Source of the DNA: Candidatus Eremiobacteria bacterium
Lineage (GTDB): Bacteria > Vulcanimicrobiota > Vulcanimicrobiia > Vulcanimicrobiales > Vulcanimicrobiaceae
Reading direction: 5' to 3'
Assembly: GCA_963758295.1 (NCBI GenBank)
Contig: CAVWUU010000004.1
Location: forward strand, 736,001-800,000
DNA length: 64,000 bases
A program made the translations under genes and the position numbers. The notes beneath the pieces are model-generated. The model was not told where the DNA came from. It made no database searches and saw only the letters and a list, made by a program, of their open reading frames with translations. Positions 22,497 through 32,578 of this stretch are shown here, one piece after another; within the stretch, counting starts at the first letter, position 1; each line of letters begins with the position of its first letter.

Positions 22497-23012
22497 CTAC
22501 GTTTGCGACACGGGCAGGGGAGCGCGATCTAAAGCTTCATACTTTCGGTACACCGTGTAATAGGTCGTCGCGACGATCGCAATAGCGAAGACCAGCACGC
22601 CGTCTCCGACTACCGTCCCCAGTGGACTGTTCGCAGGAACGATGAAACGAATCAAGGCGCGCACGGCGAATGCACCGAGATAAATTGCCGCCGTCGCCCA
22701 CGAAGGGCCGAGTTGCATCACCCCATGACGGTCCGTTGCGCTGACCTGCATGTGATGGCCGCGTAACGTTCCGACGGGGATGCCGGCCGCAATTCCGAGC
22801 ATGACGGCGATTGCAATTTGCCATACCGGTGCCGGGAAGAGCCTCTCGGCCGAATAAATCGCGAAAGCGGCGACCAGCATAAGAATGCCGGCCATCACCC
22901 ACATGCGCGTTACACTAATACGCTGCGCCCGCGAAGAGCGAATTAATACCAAACCAACGATGACGATCCAAACAAGAAGCGTTCCGATAACATCCGATCC
23001 CGGTTGATTCAC
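22497..23012 (-). CDS. CcdC/DUF1453-like membrane protein
   Basis: Five hydrophobic segments, G.LRG motif. Confidence 0.65.
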   Translation of the reverse strand: MNQPGSDVIGTLLVWIVIVGLVLIRSSRAQRISVTRMWVMAGILMLVAAFAIYSAERLFPAPVWQIAIAVMLGIAAGIPVGTLRGHHMQVSATDRHGVMQLGPSWATAAIYLGAFAVRALIRFIVPANSPLGTVVGDGVLVFAIAIVATTYYTVYRKYEALDRAPLPVSQT

Positions 23013-23137
23013 GCATCCCTCCGCAGAAAAGTCCGTTCGATTTGCTCGTCACTTCTGTTGCGAGCGCGCCGGCGCCCGCAAGAAAACGGAAGCTCGCTCG
23101 AGTGGTTCGCAGCGATTACTACTCCGTGTACGCAAAT

Positions 23138-23164
23138 AAAAACGGGAGCGTTTTCACGCTCCCA
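23138..23164 (-). terminator. Terminator after rplL
   Basis: GGGAGCG/CGCTCCC stem with U-tract on the minus strand. Confidence 0.75.
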
Positions 23165-23186
23165 TTCATTTCGTCGAAACGAAGGA

Positions 23187-23558
23187 TTACTTGATCTCGA
23201 CCTTGGCGCCGGCTTCTTCGAGCTTCTTTTTGACGCTCTCGGCTTCGTCTTTGGTGACGCCTTCTTTGACGGCCTTGGGCGCGCTTTCAACGAACGCCTT
23301 GGCTTCGGTGAGGCCCAGGCTCGTGAGTTCGCGCACGGCCTTGATGACCTTGATCTTCTCCGCGCCCGCTTCCGCGAGGATCACGTCGAATTCGGTCTTC
23401 TCGGCAGCCGGAGCGGCTGCGCCGGCGGCCGGGCCGGCCATCATCGCAACCGGAGCGGCCGCGCTGACGCCGTACTTCTCTTCGAGCTGCTTGACGAGGT
23501 CCGCGAGCTCGAGAACGGTGAGTTTATCGATCTGGTCGATGAGTTCGGCAACTGCCAT
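23187..23558 (-). CDS. rplL: 50S ribosomal protein L7/L12
   Basis: [38 protein letters not shown]. Confidence 0.99.
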
Positions 23559-23576
23559 GATAATTCAGGATCTCCC

Positions 23577-24110
23577 TTAAGCGTTCGAACCCGCGGCATC
23601 TTTTTGCTCGCGGATCTGGTTGAGCACACGGACAAGGCCGCTCTGATTCCCCGAGAGCACGGTAACGAGACCGCGCAGGGGGCTTGCGAGCGAACCAACG
23701 AGTTTTGCAACGAGCTCGGATTTCGACGGCAACGACGCGAGGACGTTGACTTGCGCTGCATCGACGTACTTGCCGTCGACGTAGGCTGCCTTGATGCCGA
23801 GTTTCTTGCTGTCATCTGCGAACTTCTTAATCGCCTTCGCGGGAGCGACCGGATCGTTTCCAGCGAAAACGACACCGGTAGGACCGTGCAAATGCGATTC
23901 GAGCAACGCGGCGATGTCTTCGCCCGCTGCGCGTTTGAAAAGCGTGTTCTTGACGACTGCATACGTGCTGCCGTCTTTACGAAGCTCGCCGCGAAGTTTA
24001 GTAATCTCTTCGACGGAGAGGCCCGCAAAGTCGGTCAGGAACAAGTTTTGCGAACCGGCGAGCCGGTTGCGCAGTTCTTGTACCGCGGCTTCTTTACGTG
24101 CGGTTGGCAT
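23577..24110 (-). CDS. rplJ: 50S ribosomal protein L10
   Basis: VVKNTLF, LHGPT, LASLPSK. Confidence 0.98.
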   Translation of the reverse strand: MPTARKEAAVQELRNRLAGSQNLFLTDFAGLSVEEITKLRGELRKDGSTYAVVKNTLFKRAAGEDIAALLESHLHGPTGVVFAGNDPVAPAKAIKKFADDSKKLGIKAAYVDGKYVDAAQVNVLASLPSKSELVAKLVGSLASPLRGLVTVLSGNQSGLVRVLNQIREQKDAAGSNA

Positions 24111-24153
24111 GACGTTTAGTGTCGCTTTCGTTTACGAGTCCCTCAAGGGGACT

Positions 24154-24185
24154 AAAAAAGCGCTCCATCCGTCCGGAGGGCGCTT
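24154..24185 (-). terminator. Attenuator terminator in the rplJ leader
   Basis: AAGCGCCCTCC-GGAC-GGATGGAGCGC-TTTTTT on the minus strand, between the L10 motif and the rplJ start. Confidence 0.7.
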
Positions 24186-24239
24186 AAGAAGATCCAAACG
24201 TCGTTTGCCACTTGCGGGCAATGACGAAAATCTCTTATT

Positions 24240-24357
24240 TACGCACCTCGGTAGAGTTTATGCTGACGCTCCAACTCGTGCGGCTGCTGACGCGCTCGCA
24301 CAAACGGTGGCGAAGCTTAAGATTAAGTCCTGGCGGACCTCTACGGTCTTCGGAGCC
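24240..24357 (-). ncRNA. Ribosomal protein L10 leader (autoregulatory RNA)
   Basis: CCGAAGACCGTAGAGG...TTAA...CTCTACCGAGGTG, matching the L10-leader AAGAC.GUAG/CUAC.GAGG motif; own promoter TTGCGT-N18-TATTCT at 24394-24365. Confidence 0.8.
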
Positions 24358-24443
24358 GTCGCAGAGAATACCATAAGAGCGGGGTTCGACGCAAGGCCGA
24401 AAAGGGCCGAGGGCCTCGTTCTGCTGATGGCCAAGCGGGCATC

Positions 24444-25118
24444 ATGAGCTACGATCGCCGCACTTTCCTCGCTGGGGCAGGTCTCAGCCTCGCAACCTTA
24501 ACCGCCGCCGGCTTTCCCGTTGCCGGGGCGGCCGCCGAACCAAAAGGTCCCCTCGCGACGCTTCTTGACGGGAACGCCCGGTTCGTCGCCGACAAGGCCG
24601 CCTGTCCGCCCCTCACGGCCCGCCGCCTGGAGCTGGCGGAAGGCCAAAGCCCGTTCGCGATTATTCTCAGCTGCTCGGATTCGCGAGTCCCTGTCGAGAC
24701 GGTCTTCGATCAGATTCCCGGAAACATATTCGGCGTTCGACTCGCCGGAAATTTCGTCGACGACGCCGGCATGGGGTCGATCGAGTACTCAATCGCCGTT
24801 TTGAAATCGTCGCTAATCCTCGTGCTCGGTCATTCGCAATGCGGAGCCATAAAGGCCGCTCTCGAGTACGTAAAAAACGGAACGTCCCAACCCGGCAGCA
24901 TCCAAACGTTGGTGAAGGCTCTCGCTCCCGCAGCCAAGGCCACAAAGGGTTCACCAGGAGATTGGGCCACCAACGCCATCGAGCGCAACGTGCACGACAA
25001 TATGGCAGCGCTGACCGCGCGCTCGTCCATCGTTGCCGACGCAGTCAAAGCCGGATCGCTCAAGATCGCGGGCGGCGTCTACGATCTGCACTCCGGGAAG
25101 GTTTCGATCGTTCGTTAA
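24444..25118 (+). CDS. Beta-carbonic anhydrase with Tat signal peptide
   Basis: DRRTFL twin-arginine signal; CSDSR and HSQC zinc ligands. Confidence 0.93.
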   Translation: MSYDRRTFLAGAGLSLATLTAAGFPVAGAAAEPKGPLATLLDGNARFVADKAACPPLTARRLELAEGQSPFAIILSCSDSRVPVETVFDQIPGNIFGVRLAGNFVDDAGMGSIEYSIAVLKSSLILVLGHSQCGAIKAALEYVKNGTSQPGSIQTLVKALAPAAKATKGSPGDWATNAIERNVHDNMAALTARSSIVADAVKAGSLKIAGGVYDLHSGKVSIVR

Positions 25119-25127
25119 CCTGAATGT

Positions 25128-25718
25128 GTGCGGGTGCCCATCGAAACCAATTCCGACATGCAACGCCTGCTCGACGGCAATCAGCGGTTCGTCGAAGGCC
25201 GCTCGCTCCTTCATGAAATGACCGCTTTCGGCGTGGAAGTTGCTGCCGGGCAAAAGCCGTTCGCCGTCGTGCTCGGGTGTTCCGATTCACGCGTTCCGAT
25301 CGAAACAATCTTCGATCAGGAGCCCGGGAACGTGTTCGTCGTGCGCGTCGCGGGCAATCTTGTCAACGACGACGGCTTGGGGTCGATGGAATATTCCTTT
25401 GAAATGCTCAAGTCGACGCTGATCTTGGTGTTGGGACATTCGGGTTGCGGCGCAGTCGCTGCGGCGATGCAGCAGGTCAACGACGGCTCGGAATTTCGAG
25501 GGCACATCGCGCGCCTCGTTTCTTCTATCGCTCCCGCAGCCGTAGCGACGCGCGGAGCCGCGGATCACTATCGCGCGGCGGTGGAAGAGAATGTGCGGCG
25601 CAACGCATCGGCAATCACGGAACGCTCTCCGATGTTGGCAAAGGCCGTTCGTGAAGGCTGCCTCGCGATTGCGGGGGCCGTTTACGATTTAAGTACCGGC
25701 AGAGTTACGCCGGTCTAA
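25128..25718 (+). CDS. Beta-carbonic anhydrase (cytoplasmic)
   Basis: CSDSR, RVAGN, HSGC; no signal peptide. Confidence 0.93.
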   Translation: MRVPIETNSDMQRLLDGNQRFVEGRSLLHEMTAFGVEVAAGQKPFAVVLGCSDSRVPIETIFDQEPGNVFVVRVAGNLVNDDGLGSMEYSFEMLKSTLILVLGHSGCGAVAAAMQQVNDGSEFRGHIARLVSSIAPAAVATRGAADHYRAAVEENVRRNASAITERSPMLAKAVREGCLAIAGAVYDLSTGRVTPV

Positions 25719-25725
25719 GAGCACG

Positions 25726-26136
25726 TTACGGTCGAGGCAGCGTTGCGCCCATCGCCGTAGCGGCGCTGTCGGTGTCCTCAACGATCTGAAGGATTTTCTC
25801 GAGCCCGACAATTCTTAAAATGCGTCGGATCGGGCTATTCTGCGGGACGACGAGCGTGAAACGCGGTCCGAGCTCTTTAGAAGCGCGCACGAATACCGTG
25901 AGAATCGTCGAATCCAGATAGTTGCATGCGGTCAAATTGGCAGCGACCGCCGGTTCATGCTCCTGCGACGAAAGCTCGACAAGCATAGATTCGAGTTCTT
26001 GCGCGCACGCCAGATCCAAATCGCCGAAAACGTGGAGCACTTCCAAATCGTCGGAGTAGTCGCGCACGAAAACGTGCGTGGTTCCGCGATTCAAACGGGA
26101 CAACGTTTGTAAGGGGATGACCTTCGCTTCGTTCAT
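25726..26136 (-). CDS. STAS-domain anti-sigma-factor antagonist
   Basis: GDLD, YLDST phosphoacceptor loop, RRILRIVGL. Confidence 0.88.
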   Translation of the reverse strand: MNEAKVIPLQTLSRLNRGTTHVFVRDYSDDLEVLHVFGDLDLACAQELESMLVELSSQEHEPAVAANLTACNYLDSTILTVFVRASKELGPRFTLVVPQNSPIRRILRIVGLEKILQIVEDTDSAATAMGATLPRP

Positions 26137-26274
26137 GATGCGAGCTGCCTCCGGCTTTCAACGGTACCCTTCAACGCGATGACGTACAAGTTGTGATCCG
26201 CCTAAGGAATTGGCGCGTACAAAGCGGCATTCAGCCTTCCGTCATTGCGCGAGCGCTCGGGTTTCGAGGCGGGA

Positions 26275-26694
26275 TTACCGCGCCGCGAACGATCGCGCGG
26301 CGGCCATCAGCGCCGGCTGAATTTCAGCGAGCGGCTCAGTCCGCAACATAATGGCCGGAACCCGATCACCCAAATGCGGATTGCTCCCCTGGAACCAAGC
26401 GCGCGCAACGTTCGGATCCGCTGCGTTTGCGACCATCTGCGCTAACTGCAGCGTGAAACGCAGCACGTGAGGCCGTTGGGGCTCGCGCCCGGCCATCCAT
26501 TGCGCCACGGCGCGCGTTTCGCTTACATTGCCTATGGCAGCGACGGTGCCGGCACCTAGAATGTCGACCAGTTCCTGGACGACCCGATCCATCGGAATCG
26601 ACATTGCGTGATCGTGGGCCTCAAAATCACCCCGCTCGCCGCGTGGGCCGAGCGGACGGTCGCCGTTGCTTTCGTTAACTTCTTTCTTGAACAT
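26275..26694 (-). CDS. Xre/MbcA/ParS-like antitoxin or regulator
   Basis: HTH-like segment (AAIGNVSETRAVAQW) plus ARAWFQGSNPHLGDRVPAIMLR C-terminal motif. Confidence 0.7.
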   Translation of the reverse strand: MFKKEVNESNGDRPLGPRGERGDFEAHDHAMSIPMDRVVQELVDILGAGTVAAIGNVSETRAVAQWMAGREPQRPHVLRFTLQLAQMVANAADPNVARAWFQGSNPHLGDRVPAIMLRTEPLAEIQPALMAAARSFAAR

Positions 26695-26797
26695 ATCCCA
26701 GCCTAAATCACAGGTTAAATCCCTGATCATAATAAGGCTACAGCCGAAAAATCGCAAGCCTCCCGGGCCGTAAAGTTTATTCAGATCACTAAAGGCC

Positions 26798-26829
26798 AAG
26801 GCCCGGTCTCTTCTCTGAGACCGGGCCTT
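26798..26829 (-). terminator. Strong hairpin after the displaced rplA 3' end
   Basis: AAGGCCCGGTCTC-TTCTCT-GAGACCGGGCCTT, 13-bp perfect stem. Confidence 0.7.
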
Positions 26830-26859
26830 CGCCTTGCTAGCTAGCTGGGTGAGTGGGTC

Positions 26860-26901
26860 TTAAGCCGTCGTGCGGATCCGGTTCGGGTCGACCTTGACGC
26901 C
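26860..26901 (-). repeat. Duplicated, diverged 3' end of rplA (att-like direct repeat)
   Basis: 23-bp identity 26879-26901 = 27955-27977; reads [17 protein letters not shown] versus [17 protein letters not shown]. Confidence 0.9.
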
Positions 26902-26964
26902 CCCGGCACCTTTCGCATATCTTGTCCTGCTCTTGGTCGTAGTGGCCGCCGCCGCAATCAGCGG

Positions 26965-27831
26965 CTACATTACATCGTTCGCGCTCCGCCGAGACACCGG
27001 GGACGCCGGCGATTGCGTCGCCCTGACGTGCGCATCCCACTGCGACCGTTCGAATAGATAGTCCGGCTCCTGCTGCGCCCAGGCGACATTAGAGAATGTG
27101 CCATCGGATACGGCCGCAAAGGTTCCGATCAGGAAATGAAGCTGCACGAACGAGTGCCATGACGTGATCAAACCGCGTTCATCGAGCGATGCGGTGTCGA
27201 TCGTCGGATACGGCGTTCCCTGACCGTCGTCCTGATAGAGCCGCGATGCAAAGGTCGCCTTGCAAAGACGATTGTCGGTGCGCCGCACCCACATCTCGCG
27301 CACGTTGTAACGCTGCGGATCGTGCAGAGGCCGCAAGCGCAGGTGCGCAACGTCCCCGCAGCCCTCGAGTGATTCATTTGCCACGAGGCTGACGTCGTAG
27401 CTGATGGCGGACCGGACGGTCGCGATCGTTTTGATGCCCTGCGGATCCGGAGTGTCGAACGTAGGTAGCACGCCCTGCGGCGCACTTTCATTGCGATACG
27501 GCAGAAAGGCGTCCGGAATGAGGTAATGCCGTCCGATCTTCACGTCGCGCAGCGAAAACATCGTTCCGGCGGTCACGCGATTCCACGAACGCCGGTCCGC
27601 GCGGCGCTCCACGACGTCTTCCGTCAGCGTTCCGAGAACGCGTCCCCTTCGAGAACCGGTCTGATCCATCACGTAGGCGATGTAGGGCCTCTGCGGCAGC
27701 GATGAAAGCCACGCGGCCGCCGCGCGATACCGGTCGGCGGCCGCGAGATCCGTCGGCTGCGCTCGCACCACGCTCGGCAGACAGGACGCAGCGGCAAGCA
27801 GAACCACGGCAATTGTTTTCACGACACTCAT
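26965..27831 (-). CDS. Secreted hypothetical protein (beta-rich)
   Basis: Signal peptide; IKTIATV and HLRLRPL.DPQRYNVREMWV segments; lies between the two rplA 3' ends. Confidence 0.75.
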   Translation of the reverse strand: MSVVKTIAVVLLAAASCLPSVVRAQPTDLAAADRYRAAAAWLSSLPQRPYIAYVMDQTGSRRGRVLGTLTEDVVERRADRRSWNRVTAGTMFSLRDVKIGRHYLIPDAFLPYRNESAPQGVLPTFDTPDPQGIKTIATVRSAISYDVSLVANESLEGCGDVAHLRLRPLHDPQRYNVREMWVRRTDNRLCKATFASRLYQDDGQGTPYPTIDTASLDERGLITSWHSFVQLHFLIGTFAAVSDGTFSNVAWAQQEPDYLFERSQWDAHVRATQSPASPVSRRSANDVM

Positions 27832-27935
27832 ACGATGCCGGACTACTCGGTGTTTCGGCTTCGGAAACGAAAGCGGCCGGCTGCCATCAATGGCGCCGGC
27901 CGCTTTCAGTTCTGCCGATTTCGCGGCTGCCCGCT

Positions 27936-28637
27936 CTAGGCGGTGGTTTTCACGCGGTTCGGGTCGACCTTGACGCCAGGGCCCATCGTACTCGTGAAAG
28001 TTACGCTCTTGAGGTACGTTCCCTTCGCGGCCGCGGGCTTCGCGCGCACAATGGCGTCGAGCAGGGCGTTGACGTTCTCGAGCAGCTGATTCTCATCGAA
28101 GCCGGCCTTGCCGACGATCGTGTGAATGATGCCGGTCTTGTCGAGGCGATATTCGACCTTACCGGCTTTGATGTCGCGGATCGCGCCCGCGATATTCGCC
28201 GAAACGGTGCCGGCCTTCGGGTTCGGCATCTTCTGCGCGAGGATACGGCCGAGTTCCTTACCGACTTGCGCCATCATGTCCGGCGTTGCAACGGCAACGT
28301 CGAAGTCGGCGAAGCCGCCCTTGAGGCGGTCGATCAGATCTTGGTCGCCGACGATATCGGCGCCCGCTTCTTGCGCGGCCTTGGCGTTGTCGCCCTTGGC
28401 GAACGCAATGACGCGGACCGTACGTCCCGTGCCGTTCGGCAGCAGAACCGTACCGCGAACGTTCTGATCGCTCTTCTTCGGATCGACGCCGAGGCGCACG
28501 TGCACTTCGACGGTTTCGTTGAACTTCGCCGTGGCGTTCTTCTTGACGATCGAGATGGCTTCGGACGCCGAGTACAGCGTCTTCTTGTCGAAATTCGAAA
28601 CGAGGTTGCGGAAACGCTTACCGTGATGTTGCGGCAT
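27936..28637 (-). CDS. rplA: 50S ribosomal protein L1
   Basis: [32 protein letters not shown]. Confidence 0.99.
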
Positions 28638-29062
28638 TAGGCTTCCACCTCCACACCCATCGAACGCGCGGTGCCGGCGATGATTTTTTTCGCGGCATCG
28701 ATGTCGTTGGCGTTGATGTCGGGCATCTTCACCTTCGCGATCTCTTCGAGTTGCGAGTTCGTGAGTTTGCCGACTTTGTTGCGATTCGGTTCTTTGGAAC
28801 CCGAGTCGAGTTTCAAAGCCTGCTTGATCAGGAAAGACGCCGGCGGCGTCTTCGTGATGAACGTGAACGTGCGGTCTTCGAAAACGGTGATCTCGACCGG
28901 AATGATCATGCCGGCCTGCGAGGCAGTACGTTCGTTGTACTGCTTGCAGAAATCCATGATATTCAGGGAGTACGGTCCGAGAGCCGGACCGATCGGCGGC
29001 GCAGGCGTTGCCTTGCCGGCCGGAATTTGCAGGCCGATTTTGCCTACAACTTTCTTAGCCAT
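28637..29062 (-). CDS. rplK: 50S ribosomal protein L11
   Basis: [22 protein letters not shown]. Confidence 0.99.
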
Positions 29063-29288
29063 GGTTACTCCTTATTGAGGCGTCGCCGCGGGCGGCCAGC
29101 CTCTGCCCCTCAGCAATCTCGCACCCCGGGGTCACTGGTACGAGAATCTTGATTTACCGCCGCCGCAACTCGTCTTTGAAACGTCTGCAAGCGTGCAGCA
29201 TTTTCGTTCGTAGTTAGGCGCCGTCGGGTGAAGTGGACTATGGTCCACGAGCCCCGCGGCAACGACACTACGGACGAAAAGGCAAACG

Positions 29289-30020
29289 CTAGACCTTCTC
29301 CACCTGAAAGAACTCCAGCTCAACGGGCGTTTCGCGCCCGAAGATGGAGATGAGCGCGCGAAGGCGTTCTTTCTCGGGTTGGATTTCGTCGACGACACCG
29401 GTGAAGTCGAAGAACGGGCCCGACGTGACCTTGATGCGGTCGCCCTTCTTGAAGTCGATCTTGAGCTTCGGAGCTTCGATGCCCATCTGCTTGAGGATCG
29501 TCTTCACTTCTTTGTCTTGAAGCGGAACCGGTTTTTCACCCGGGCCCGGACTTCCGACGAATCCGGTGACGCCTTGCGTGTTGCGCACGACGTACCACGA
29601 TTGATCGTCCATGATCATCTCGACCAGGACGTAACCCGGGAAAACTTTCTTCGGCGTGATTTTGCGCTTGCCGTCTTTGAATTCTACTTCGTCTTCCATC
29701 GGGACAAGCACGCGGAAGATCTTGTCCTGCATGCCCATCGAATGGATGCGGCGTTCGAGATTCGCCTTCACTTTGTTCTCGTAACCCGAGTACGTGTGAA
29801 TGACGAACCAATTGCGGTTGTCTTTCTTGCCCTGGCGCGCAGCGCGCTCTTCCGGCTGCTCCGCCGTTTCCTCGGAAACCTCAGCAGCGTCGGAAACATC
29901 GAAGGCGCTCGCGAACGGTCCGCCGGACTGCGTCGAATCACCCGTGTCGATTTCACTCGTCGCAGGATCAACTTCGGTGTGCACGGCGCCGCCGTCGTAC
30001 TCGCGTTCGGATTCAGACAT
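29289..30020 (-). CDS. nusG: Transcription factor NusG with acidic N-terminal extension
   Basis: WFVIHTYSGYE, FPGYVLVEM, KOW motif, IFGRETPVEL. Confidence 0.98.
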   Translation of the reverse strand: MSESEREYDGGAVHTEVDPATSEIDTGDSTQSGGPFASAFDVSDAAEVSEETAEQPEERAARQGKKDNRNWFVIHTYSGYENKVKANLERRIHSMGMQDKIFRVLVPMEDEVEFKDGKRKITPKKVFPGYVLVEMIMDDQSWYVVRNTQGVTGFVGSPGPGEKPVPLQDKEVKTILKQMGIEAPKLKIDFKKGDRIKVTSGPFFDFTGVVDEIQPEKERLRALISIFGRETPVELEFFQVEKV

Positions 30021-30028
30021 AGATATCG

Positions 30029-30283
30029 TTAAACGTTCAACAAGTGGATCTGGCTGAAGAGCCAGCCGAAGAGTTGGTCGGCAGCGTACGTGAACAGGCC
30101 GATTCCAACCACGAGCACCACGGTAAGCACGGTCGCGCTAACCCACTCGTCGCGAGTCGGCCACGTAACGCGCTTGAGCTCGGTGATTACACCTTGCGCG
30201 AAGTTGTTGCCGCGCATGGACTGAGTCTGGCGCTGCGCCGTCGAGGCGCCTCGCGTCACCGCACTCTTCTTTTGCTCGTTCAC
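30029..30283 (-). CDS. secE: Preprotein translocase subunit SecE
   Basis: ELKRVTWPT plus TM helix; between tRNA-Trp and nusG. Confidence 0.95.
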   Translation of the reverse strand: MNEQKKSAVTRGASTAQRQTQSMRGNNFAQGVITELKRVTWPTRDEWVSATVLTVVLVVGIGLFTYAADQLFGWLFSQIHLLNV

Positions 30284-30313
30284 TTTGAAACGTGTCTCCC
30301 GGGAAATATGACT

Positions 30314-30389
30314 TGGCAGGGCGGACAGGACTCGAACCTGCAACCGGCGATTTTGGAGACCGCTACTCTACCAATTGAGCTACCGCCCT
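30314..30389 (-). tRNA. tRNA-Trp(CCA)
   Basis: 76-nt cloverleaf, anticodon loop CTCCAAA, encoded CCA end. Confidence 0.97.
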
Positions 30390-30420
30390 ACGCGTTCGGA
30401 GCGCCCTGCGGCGCCCCTAA

Positions 30421-30585
30421 TTATTTGGTCTCGCGGTGGGAACGGTGACACCGGCAGAAGCGGCAATACTTGCTAAGCTCCAACCGATCCGTCGTCTTCT
30501 GTTTATTTTTTTGAGTATTGTAGTTGCGTCGCTTGCACTCCGTGCACGCCATCACAACCATCACACGATTTTCTTTTTTTGCCAC
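30421..30585 (-). CDS. rpmG: 50S ribosomal protein L33 (zinc-binding C+ form), not in ORF track
   Basis: [22 protein letters not shown]...[20 protein letters not shown]. Confidence 0.97.
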
Positions 30586-30847
30586 TTTTCAGTCTACCAC
30601 GAACATGAAATAAACGGACTCGGAGGTCCGTTCAGCAACCCATGCTACCACGGCCGCCCGCCTACATGCAACCCGCCCCGACAATTTCTCTCTCGCGACC
30701 TTTGTCGCCACTCTGCCCGGCCCGCTTGCACCCCAAAGCACACATAGTCACGACTGGAGCGAAAGTGCGCCCGGGGGAGGCTCGGCCGCCCGCGGCCTAC
30801 GCCTGGCCGGGCGCAAACAGTTGCGGCGCTTTCGCTCGGCAAATTCT

Positions 30848-30922
30848 TGCGCCCGGCCAGAATCGAACTGGCAACCTCGGCCTTAGGAGTGCCTTGCTCT
30901 ATCCAAATTGAGCTACGGGCGC
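30848..30922 (-). tRNA. tRNA-Arg(CCT)
   Basis: Cloverleaf with loop CTCCTAA and GTTCGA T-loop; weak anticodon stem; CCA not encoded. Confidence 0.85.
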
Positions 30923-30940
30923 ATGCCTGCAAGTGACCGC

Positions 30941-32578
30941 TTAGGCCAGGGGAGGCGGGGAACCCTCCTCGCGCCAGAGCACGAATCGCTCGACCAGATC
31001 CGGGTCGAACTGCGTTCCCGAGTTCCGAAGCAGCTCCGCCAAGGCCGCCGTCTCGCTGATGCCTCGGTGGTATGGGCGATCCGAAACCATCGCGGAGAAC
31101 GCGTCGAGGATGGCGACCGCCCGAGCCAATGGATGAATTTGGTCGCCTTTCAAGCCCAACGGGTAACCGAAGCCGTCCCACCGCTCGTGATGTTGTCCGA
31201 CGATCTCCGCGACTTCTTGATACCCCGGTTGATGCTCCAGAATGTGCTTGCCGAATGCGGAGTGCTGCTGCATCGCTTCGTACTCGTCTCGAGTCAGGCG
31301 GCCGGGCTTGATCAGAATCCGGTCGGAAACCAAAAGCTTCCCGACGTCGTGCAATAAGCTGGCTTGCAGTAATTGCGCGAGCATGTCGCCATCCAGCTCC
31401 AGGTTGTATTCGGACCACAGCTTCGCCATCGCGTTGACTTGTAACAGATGAACGCGCGTGTAAGGATCCCGATCCAGCAGTCCTTCGACGATCGTTTCGA
31501 CGCCGGTAAAATTTCCGTGCGTCGTGTAGGCGTCGAGGTCGTCGGGACCGACCGGTACACCGCCCTGTTTGCGGCTTAAACGCGTACGGTGAACGCACAA
31601 AGCCGTTACGTCGCCACGCGTTCCGGCTTCCAGTGGAGCGATCACGTAACCGCATGCAACGGAGATCGGCAGCGTTTGATCGGGCGATACGTACGCAAGG
31701 CCGGCCAAGCGCGTCGCGAGACGCTCCACCAAATGGTCTATCAGGTCGGGCGACGCGTCGCTGACCAACGCCATGAAGACATCACCGCCAAACCGCCCGA
31801 CCGTTAGATGATCGTGCGCTTCTTCGAATTCGCGCAACTCACGAGCAACACGACGCAACACTTCGTCGCCCTCGGCATACCCGTAAATTTCGTTGAACAT
31901 GCCGAAATTGACGAGGTTTAGCATCACTGCTACGCACGGACGCGTCGACGTTGAACCCGCGAGCGCACGATCGAGATCGCGCGAGAGCTTCGAATGGTTT
32001 GCGAGCGTCGTTAGCGGATCGAACTCAGCCGTGCGTTGCAACGCTTGATACATGCGTTGGTTTTGCACGGCAATCGCGAGATAATGGCCGATGGCGGCAA
32101 TCATGTCTACGTCATTCGTGTCGTACGCATTCGCTCGGGGGCTCTGCACGGAAAGCGCGCCGATGACTTCGCCCGCGGCGCGCATCGGCACAAAAATCGC
32201 CGAAACGCTGTCGTTAGTCCAAGGACGGTCCTGATTGATTGCGTGCGAACCGCCGGGAGCCCATTCATCCGGCGCATTTCCCCAAATGATGCCGCCCGAT
32301 TCAATGGCCGCCCGAGCGCGCGACTTTGGTGACAGTTCGATGTGGGGATAGCGGCGAATTTCACCGTGATCGTAAAAGTATTCGATCGCGTGATTGCCGC
32401 TTGCGTTTGCGAGCGCTATAAACACCACCGACGAGTCGATGTGTTCGGCCAGCATTCGGGTGAGACGATCGAAGAGATCACCAAGGGAAAGGTCGGCGGC
32501 AAGCAATGTTGCGGCTTGCTTTAAAAGCAGCCGTTCCTTGGTATGAGGCCGGTCGAACGCGGTAATCCGATCCTTCAT
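30941..32578 (-). CDS. GAF-GGDEF(degenerate GGDVF)-HD-GYP c-di-GMP phosphodiesterase
   Basis: GAF, DPLT, GRFGGDVF, LLHDVGK, HHERWDGFGYP, SGTQFDP. Confidence 0.92.
   Translation of the reverse strand: MKDRITAFDRPHTKERLLLKQAATLLAADLSLGDLFDRLTRMLAEHIDSSVVFIALANASGNHAIEYFYDHGEIRRYPHIELSPKSRARAAIESGGIIWGNAPDEWAPGGSHAINQDRPWTNDSVSAIFVPMRAAGEVIGALSVQSPRANAYDTNDVDMIAAIGHYLAIAVQNQRMYQALQRTAEFDPLTTLANHSKLSRDLDRALAGSTSTRPCVAVMLNLVNFGMFNEIYGYAEGDEVLRRVARELREFEEAHDHLTVGRFGGDVFMALVSDASPDLIDHLVERLATRLAGLAYVSPDQTLPISVACGYVIAPLEAGTRGDVTALCVHRTRLSRKQGGVPVGPDDLDAYTTHGNFTGVETIVEGLLDRDPYTRVHLLQVNAMAKLWSEYNLELDGDMLAQLLQASLLHDVGKLLVSDRILIKPGRLTRDEYEAMQQHSAFGKHILEHQPGYQEVAEIVGQHHERWDGFGYPLGLKGDQIHPLARAVAILDAFSAMVSDRPYHRGISETAALAELLRNSGTQFDPDLVERFVLWREEGSPPPLA

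Follow-up and report, generated by a model that had tools for sequence, protein, structure and literature searches.

Some integrative elements, among them tyrosine-recombinase islands and prophages, target the 3' end of a gene and bring along a substitute for the end that is cut off. The locus described here has the outline of such an insertion. It lies in a 64,000-nucleotide stretch, hereafter called the window, of the genome of a Candidatus Eremiobacteria bacterium of the family Vulcanimicrobiaceae (assembly GCA_963758295.1, contig CAVWUU010000004.1, positions 736,001 to 800,000). In this genome ~1.05 kb of DNA interrupts the 3' end of rplA, the essential gene for ribosomal protein L1, and carries a replacement tail, a terminator-like hairpin and a single gene, referred to below as the cargo. 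Another model has been put forward for insertions at polymorphic toxin loci. The passages of PMC5361080 that concern these loci propose homology-facilitated illegitimate recombination for insertions of type VI secretion system (T6SS) effector-immunity genes that push the ancestral gene further downstream, and cite an equivalent proposal for orphaned Rhs 3' regions that lie in strings.

The genome analysed, labelled G000 (its relatives are labelled G002, G003 and so on), is a 3,030,452-bp assembly of 6 contigs that is 82% complete. The insertion is marked by a 23-bp sequence, CGGTTCGGGTCGACCTTGACGCC, which occurs twice on the minus strand at a distance of 1,076 bp. A search of the window with up to 3 mismatches returned these 2 matches against 0 expected from 100 shuffles, and the whole assembly contains no further copy. 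Copy 1 consists of rplA codons G221 to R228 (GVKVDPNR) and is followed by VKTTA and a TAG stop. After copy 2, at an equal offset, come IRTTA and a TAA stop; this second, orphan tail is detached from any gene. Of the 19 bases that come after the 23-mer, only about half are shared by the two tails, and each has a hairpin of its own downstream (folding z-score -4.4 for the working tail and -6.2 for the orphan tail). The DNA between the copies holds one open reading frame (ORF), that of the 288-residue cargo, and a 63-nt spacer. The reading frame of the working rplA is intact and its length is unchanged. An earlier note made from the sequence alone had reported the repeated 23-mer with one copy inside rplA, an L1 tail, stop and hairpin after each copy, and a lone secreted-protein gene with no integrase between them, and all of this was borne out.

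Which of the two tails is native? The gene rplA was located in 39 of 41 genomes (G000 and 40 relatives), and the region from rplA to rplJ was taken from 15 relatives. The earlier note had called for a search for an uninterrupted, empty site in related genomes, and such a site was found in three genomes of the same genus, G003, G005 and G002. Their gene order is rplA, hairpin, orf174, the gene of a STAS-domain protein (STAS), the two beta-carbonic anhydrase genes CA2 and CA1, and rplJ, with no gene between rplA and orf174. G002 additionally carries a cargo homologue (64% identical) between STAS and CA2. G003, whose L1 protein is 95% identical to that of G000, is otherwise collinear with G000 over the window, and the long genes of the two are mostly 80-98% identical at the amino acid level. 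Therefore, the ~1.05 kb is the sole difference between them at this locus.

The downstream DNA and the tails themselves point the same way. The 170 nt past the orphan stop align with the 170 nt past the G003 rplA stop at 83% identity over 151 nt (z 21 against shuffles), whereas the 170 nt past the working stop give no alignment with the same G003 region (z 0.1). The relatives with the empty site all have arginine-type tails, namely IRTTA in G005, IRATA in G002 and VRATA in G003, and the orphan tail is the same as that of G005. Lysine-type tails are found in more distant genomes: the working tail VKTTA recurs in G011 and in the unpublished genome G004, and similar tails are VKATA in G014 and VKVTA in G023. 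In the 21-base stretch that begins with the R codon and includes the stop, counted by eye, the working tail shares 18 with G004, 17 each with G011 and G014, and 14 each with G003, G002 and G005. The comparisons with G011 and G014 are independent of the unpublished genome. The orphan tail shares 16 of the same 21 bases with G005 and 14 with G003, again counted by eye. Because the orphan tail is arginine-type and is followed by G003-like DNA, it is the native one, whereas the working tail is incoming. In other words, ~1.05 kb has been inserted into rplA of G000 42 nt before the native stop. It consists of the tail VKTTA, a terminator, the gene for a 288-residue signal-peptide protein and 63 nt, and the native IRTTA end has become an orphan. 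The insertion with tail replacement that the earlier note had described at the 3' end of rplA is thus real, with the native tail and its hairpin displaced downstream.

Some peculiarities of the relatives were seen in these comparisons. The rplA of G005 matches as three overlapping pieces with 2 in-frame TGA codons (locus L062, G005:C2 9070-9770); the breaks are probably frameshift errors of the assembly, and the IRTTA tail was read from the last piece. In G003 (locus L053, on G003:C2) ~1 kb separates rplL from the next gene, compared with ~90 nt in G000, which is a further insertion or deletion, on the margin of the ribosomal cluster. A mosaic origin of rplJ was considered, as its protein is 86% identical to that of G003 and 95% to that of G005, and was rejected when the difference disappeared at the DNA level (90.2% versus 88.9%).

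The identical final structure could also have arisen with the reverse polarity. In that case rplA with the VKTTA tail, its terminator and the cargo would be native, and the orphan tail, hairpin, orf174 and STAS would have come from a G003-like relative through an exchange with its anchor of homology in the carbonic anhydrase genes and an illegitimate join after the cargo. Several identities are compatible with this order of events. The 64% identity of the cargo to its G002 homologue falls inside the 59-70% span that the other spacer genes show for that pair of genomes, the G275 homologue adjoins a carbonic anhydrase gene within the rplA-rplJ spacer, as the scheme requires, and orf174 and STAS are 74% and 73% identical to those of G003 compared with 91% for CA2. 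However, the three closest relatives with the orf174-STAS pair all have it directly behind rplA and all have an arginine-type tail, and because all three show it, rplA-orf174-STAS is the parsimonious ancestral state for G000. On the right-hand side of the junction the DNA is most similar to G003 (z 21, versus 2.1 for G005), as the genome generally is, and the lysine tail would still want a separate explanation. The reverse polarity is therefore considered unlikely.

The divergence of the tails also bears on a purely internal origin, in which the region from the rplA tail to the cargo was duplicated in tandem from a G002-like order and two deletions followed. Such a history would reproduce the gene order, as G002 has rplA-orf174-STAS-cargo. 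However, it needs three events, and the tails would at first have been identical, yet about half of their 19 bases differ while the 23-mer is untouched. The two hairpins are also unrelated, and a history of this kind is hardly credible. An assembly artefact, in which the sequences of two strains were joined at the common 23-mer, was weighed as well. The assembly is of the metagenome type, and neither junction was bridged by contigs of four public soil sequencing runs, in which depth was low. On the other hand, the contig spans 1,399,315 bp without any N within a 6-contig assembly, and a join at the 23-mer presupposes that one strain had a 23-mer after the 63-nt spacer, which is the duplication itself. 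Furthermore, contigs of 151-195 nt with zero differences cover positions 27334-27788 in three of the runs, from two studies. Because these difference-free contigs come from three runs and two studies, the cargo sequence exists in nature. The four runs otherwise yielded conserved rplK and rplA pieces from other organisms. A chimera is thus very improbable.

Upstream of copy 2 the in-register match to rplA falls from 23/23 to 5/27 bases (counted by eye). There is no extended homology on that side of the 26902|26901 junction, which judging from the sequence appears to be an illegitimate one. The insert has a GC content of 0.61-0.65, similar to that of its flanks, so that there is no compositional contrast. 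A repeat search detected neither terminal inverted repeats nor any further repeats of the insert, and blastn against the whole assembly showed that none of its parts is present a second time. Both 23-mers have CAAGAGC in register 27 nt further upstream, and this match was treated as chance (probability ~0.006 by our own estimate), as only 5 of the 27 bases in between agree. The TAG stop of the cargo (26967-26965) is in frame with the orphan L1 tail, and read-through (26860-26967) would add 34 residues; the shared frame has a 1-in-3 chance and is probably meaningless.

Perfect direct repeats at the borders of an insert raise the question of site-specific integration. The 23-mer would then be the core of an attachment (att) site, and the insert a 1,076-bp circular one-gene cassette with a mimic of the rplA tail and a terminator, moved by a recombinase encoded elsewhere. 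The 23-bp repeats lie exactly at the borders where 0 are expected by chance, the replacement tail is of equal length and has its own terminator, and relatives show the empty site; the recombinase may also be missing from an assembly that is 82% complete. Against this, there is no integrase or other recombinase in or near the insert, whose sole ORF has no Pfam match. One intact tyrosine recombinase gene is present ~430 kb away (C4:332523-333026), a Phage_integrase gene on C1 is broken, and no serine recombinase (Resolvase) match was found in the 3.03-Mb assembly at its 82% completeness. The insert is single-copy. The assembly as a whole is very poor in recombinases, with 1 intact and 1 broken tyrosine type and 0 serine type.

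Recurrence was looked for across the family. Of 348 family genomes (G000 included), 165 gave a match to a degenerate GVKVDPNR pattern, and only in G000 did two matches lie on one contig. Neither a duplicated tail nor another cargo was found beside rplA in any of the 347 other family genomes, so the different cargo that the earlier note suggested looking for at the same 23-mer did not turn up. Three genomes that at first resembled duplicated-tail cases (G111, G252 and G253) were rejected, as their matches lie on separate contigs and represent a second full or partial rplA or an overlap of contig ends. In 11 other listed genomes, which belong to 8 genera and include G003, the exact 23-mer is plain conserved coding sequence of rplA; the rplA 3' end is 76-85% identical over the family, and the GVKVDPNR block is conserved. 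Because the 23-mer is ordinary conserved rplA sequence, its perfect repetition needs no att site. Likewise, the cargo homologues elsewhere are resident spacer genes without repeats: no rplA tail fragments adjoin those of G002, G275, G277, G235, G005 or locus L120, and the cargo borders in G002 are clean. Site-specific integration of a cassette at this locus is thus improbable. A broader version is quite unlikely too: the rplA 23-mer would truly serve as the attachment site of tiny one-gene cassettes without an integrase (each with an L1-tail mimic and a terminator), a recombinase of the host or one left unassembled would move them in trans, and the variable rplA-rplJ spacer would be their product. 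The earlier note had offered an integrase-free cassette mobilised in trans as one of two explanations, and it found no support: there is no nearby recombinase, no recurrence, and the 23-mer is ordinary rplA sequence. The other explanation on offer, a capture of foreign DNA comprising rplA and what lies downstream of it, fits best.

How could such a capture have occurred? A reasonably probable origin of the insert is a related lineage whose DNA was taken up through a homologous anchor in rplA and one illegitimate junction; from the features described above we infer both the recombination route and the foreign origin. The source of the ~1.05 kb would be a related lineage, probably another member of the Vulcanimicrobiota/Eremiobacterota, in which a gene for a LolA-like secreted protein followed straight after rplA and its terminator. 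On the simplest account, the first exchange would have been homologous and would have fallen inside the 23 bp of identity or upstream of them. The second end would have been joined illegitimately to the recipient 42 nt ahead of the native stop (26902|26901). The incoming DNA may have been a linear fragment, as in homology-facilitated illegitimate recombination, or a circularised fragment that entered by a single crossover. The outcome would be an rplA with the donor tail VKTTA and the donor terminator, followed by the cargo, with the native IRTTA, hairpin, orf174 and STAS displaced 1,076 bp downstream. Features of the homology-facilitated illegitimate type are present: a conserved rplA anchor lies beside the insert, and a 42-nt ancestral 3' fragment is kept downstream of it, followed by the native hairpin and orf174.

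Several observations weigh against a homology-anchored capture. No donor turned up. For the terminal 190 nt of rplA together with its flank, the best DNA matches among the 348 family genomes are at 83-85%, and a search with the cargo protein in these genomes and in metagenome and genome contigs found nothing closer than the 70% homologue. The metagenome contig scan with the cargo gave one match at 39%, and the genome contig scan gave only the three loci already found. Identity to G003 declines from 91.8% over the first 513 nt of rplA to 83.1% over the last 190 nt, but other pairs of genomes drop too, so that no left exchange point stands out. A foreign tract within rplA was sought by sliding identity, three-taxon counts of unique sites and quartet patterns, and was rejected because these gave a trend only. 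The three-taxon tests with in-group references were not significant (p 0.08-1), and in the quartet test 1 of 14 outgroups gave p 0.0075, uncorrected, with the others at 0.07-1. An exchange upstream of the 23-mer would require that the donor and the recipient had this sequence in common by conservation. The sharp switch from 23/23 to about half identity is also expected of an att core, and a recombinase could have gone unassembled in an assembly that is 82% complete.

The cargo protein has a signal-peptide-like N-terminus and matches 0 Pfam families at E<=0.01. It has 25 homologues, none with an assigned name, of which the best is 70% identical. At E<=1e-30, homologues are present in 5 of the 348 family genomes (G000 included). 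In two of the four other carriers the homologue lies within the rplA-rplJ spacer, after STAS in G002 (64% identity) and beside a carbonic anhydrase gene in G275 (46%), and in neither is it directly behind rplA. To judge from this gene order, the cargo appears to belong to the rplA-rplJ chromosomal neighbourhood. AlphaFold2, run on a 21-sequence alignment, gave a model with a predicted local distance difference test (pLDDT) score of 80.4 and a predicted template modelling (pTM) score of 0.74, with low confidence at residues 111-139. The modelled fold is an open beta-sheet with flanking helices. In Foldseek the best match was 3buu (E 3e-9, probability 1.0), yet with template modelling (TM) scores of only 0.36 and 0.44; other matches were the DUF1329 structure 4z48 (E 1e-6), LolA3 and MucB. 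The cargo may resemble the LolA superfamily (LolA/LolB, LppX/LprG, RseB/MucB) in its modelled fold, its Foldseek matches and its signal-peptide-like start. It differs from that superfamily in having no Pfam match, in TM scores of only 0.2-0.47 and in an identity of 6-17%. Going by the model, the cargo may plausibly be secreted and bind lipid or lipoprotein moieties.

The spacer between rplA and rplJ is variable in the family. In 17 genomes its length lies between 0.43 and 4.2 kb, and rplA and rplJ are 3.8 kb apart in G000. Among 14 loci with rplA as well as rplJ, 12 have one or two convergent beta-carbonic anhydrase genes in the spacer, and G275 and G277 have them too. These genes constitute an unusual, conserved break in the rplKA-rplJL cluster of the family (loci L053-L066, L110 and L111). 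The other spacer ORFs are unnamed; of 12 tested, 11 have no Pfam match and 1 has an EAL domain, several begin lipoprotein-like, and none of the 12 has an integrase or transposase domain. In other words, the spacer already houses carbonic anhydrase genes and ORFs with secretion-signal-like starts in this family. The earlier note had also held that rplA acts as an anchor for gene capture. That claim stands in the weak sense that the spacer varies so much in content and length, and finds no support in the sense of an attachment site for cassettes.

The features of the locus are collected in the table below. Past the orphan tail the gene order is orf174, STAS, the two beta-carbonic anhydrase genes and rplJ. 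The orf174 and STAS pair (26275-26694 and 25726-26136) is found only in G000, G002, G003 and G005, and is directly behind rplA in the relatives. The product of orf174 has a weak match to the C-terminal domain of Xre/MbcA/ParS antitoxins (Pfam, 23.5 bits, under the cut-off of 24.5), and a promoter-like site (26757-26729) lies upstream of its probable start. An Rfam scan of 22500-31000 returned two tRNAs only. These tRNA genes (30317-30389 and 30848-30922) flank rpmG upstream of secE-nusG-rplK and are ordinary.

Table. Features of the rplA locus, with positions in the window.
Feature	Positions	Strand	Basis
rplK (L11), 141 aa	28637..29062	-	ORF; 98% identical to G003
rplA (L1), 233 aa, intact	27936..28637	-	Pfam Ribosomal_L1, E 6e-66; 95% amino acid identity to G003
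23-mer copy 1, codons GVKVDPNR of working rplA	27955..27977	-	Exact repeat
Incoming tail VKTTA and TAG, lysine-type	27936..27954	-	Tail comparison
Intrinsic-terminator-like hairpin, then UUUCGUUU	27864..27912	-	Inverted repeat I2; -48.4 kcal/mol
Cargo, 288 aa, signal-peptide-like N-terminus, modelled LolA-superfamily-like fold	26965..27831	-	ORF, AlphaFold2, Foldseek
63-nt spacer from cargo stop to orphan tail	26902..26964	-	No repeat elsewhere in assembly
Orphan native rplA tail: 23-mer copy 2 (26879-26901) and IRTTA-TAA (26860-26878)	26860..26901	-	Sequence comparison
Native rplA hairpin, downstream of orphan tail	26792..26835	-	Inverted repeat I1; -44.4 kcal/mol; inside G003-aligned stretch
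orf174; likely true start ATG 26694 (139 aa)	26275..26799	-	Alignments of relatives start at residue 35-51
STAS-domain protein, 136 aa	25726..26136	-	Pfam STAS, E 9e-9
Two tandem beta-carbonic anhydrase genes (CA1, CA2), convergent with rplA	24444..25718	+	Pfam Pro_CA, E 1e-38 and 2e-40
rplJ (L10), far border of variable spacer	23577..24110	-	Pfam Ribosomal_L10

The locus is a clean natural case, complete with its empty site, of a gene added within the coding end of an essential ribosomal gene without harm. The gene rplA is unharmed because the incoming DNA supplies an equivalent tail and a terminator. The case suggests that conserved ribosomal genes around a permissive spacer, here rplA-rplJ, can anchor gene exchange by homology in a poorly sampled soil phylum. 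The route was most likely ordinary recombination and not a new mobile cassette. The value of the case therefore lies in a documented locus, and in an orphan tail that serves as a marker of the event, and not in a new mechanism.

The insertion can be set beside two kinds of known system. It resembles integrative elements of gene 3' ends in its direct repeats at the borders, its replacement tail that preserves the target, and the empty site in relatives. Unlike those elements, it has no integrase, is 1.05 kb in size with one gene, is present in a single copy and does not recur in the 347 other family genomes. The second comparison is with the orphan 3' regions of Rhs and contact-dependent inhibition (CDI) systems and with the T6SS arrays of Vibrio cholerae, as far as the relevant passages of PMC5361080 describe them. 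There the anchor is a polymorphic toxin gene that acquires a new toxin tip and the products form an array, whereas the rplA anchor is an essential ribosomal gene that received an equivalent tail in a single event. The rplA orphan is also merely 42 nt long, and its route is one that we infer. In the remaining respects the rplA case is like the Rhs/CDI and T6SS cases as presented in those passages: an upstream anchor is conserved, the new DNA has no counterpart in the recipient, no recombinase gene accompanies it, and the ancestral 3' part is retained downstream as an orphan.

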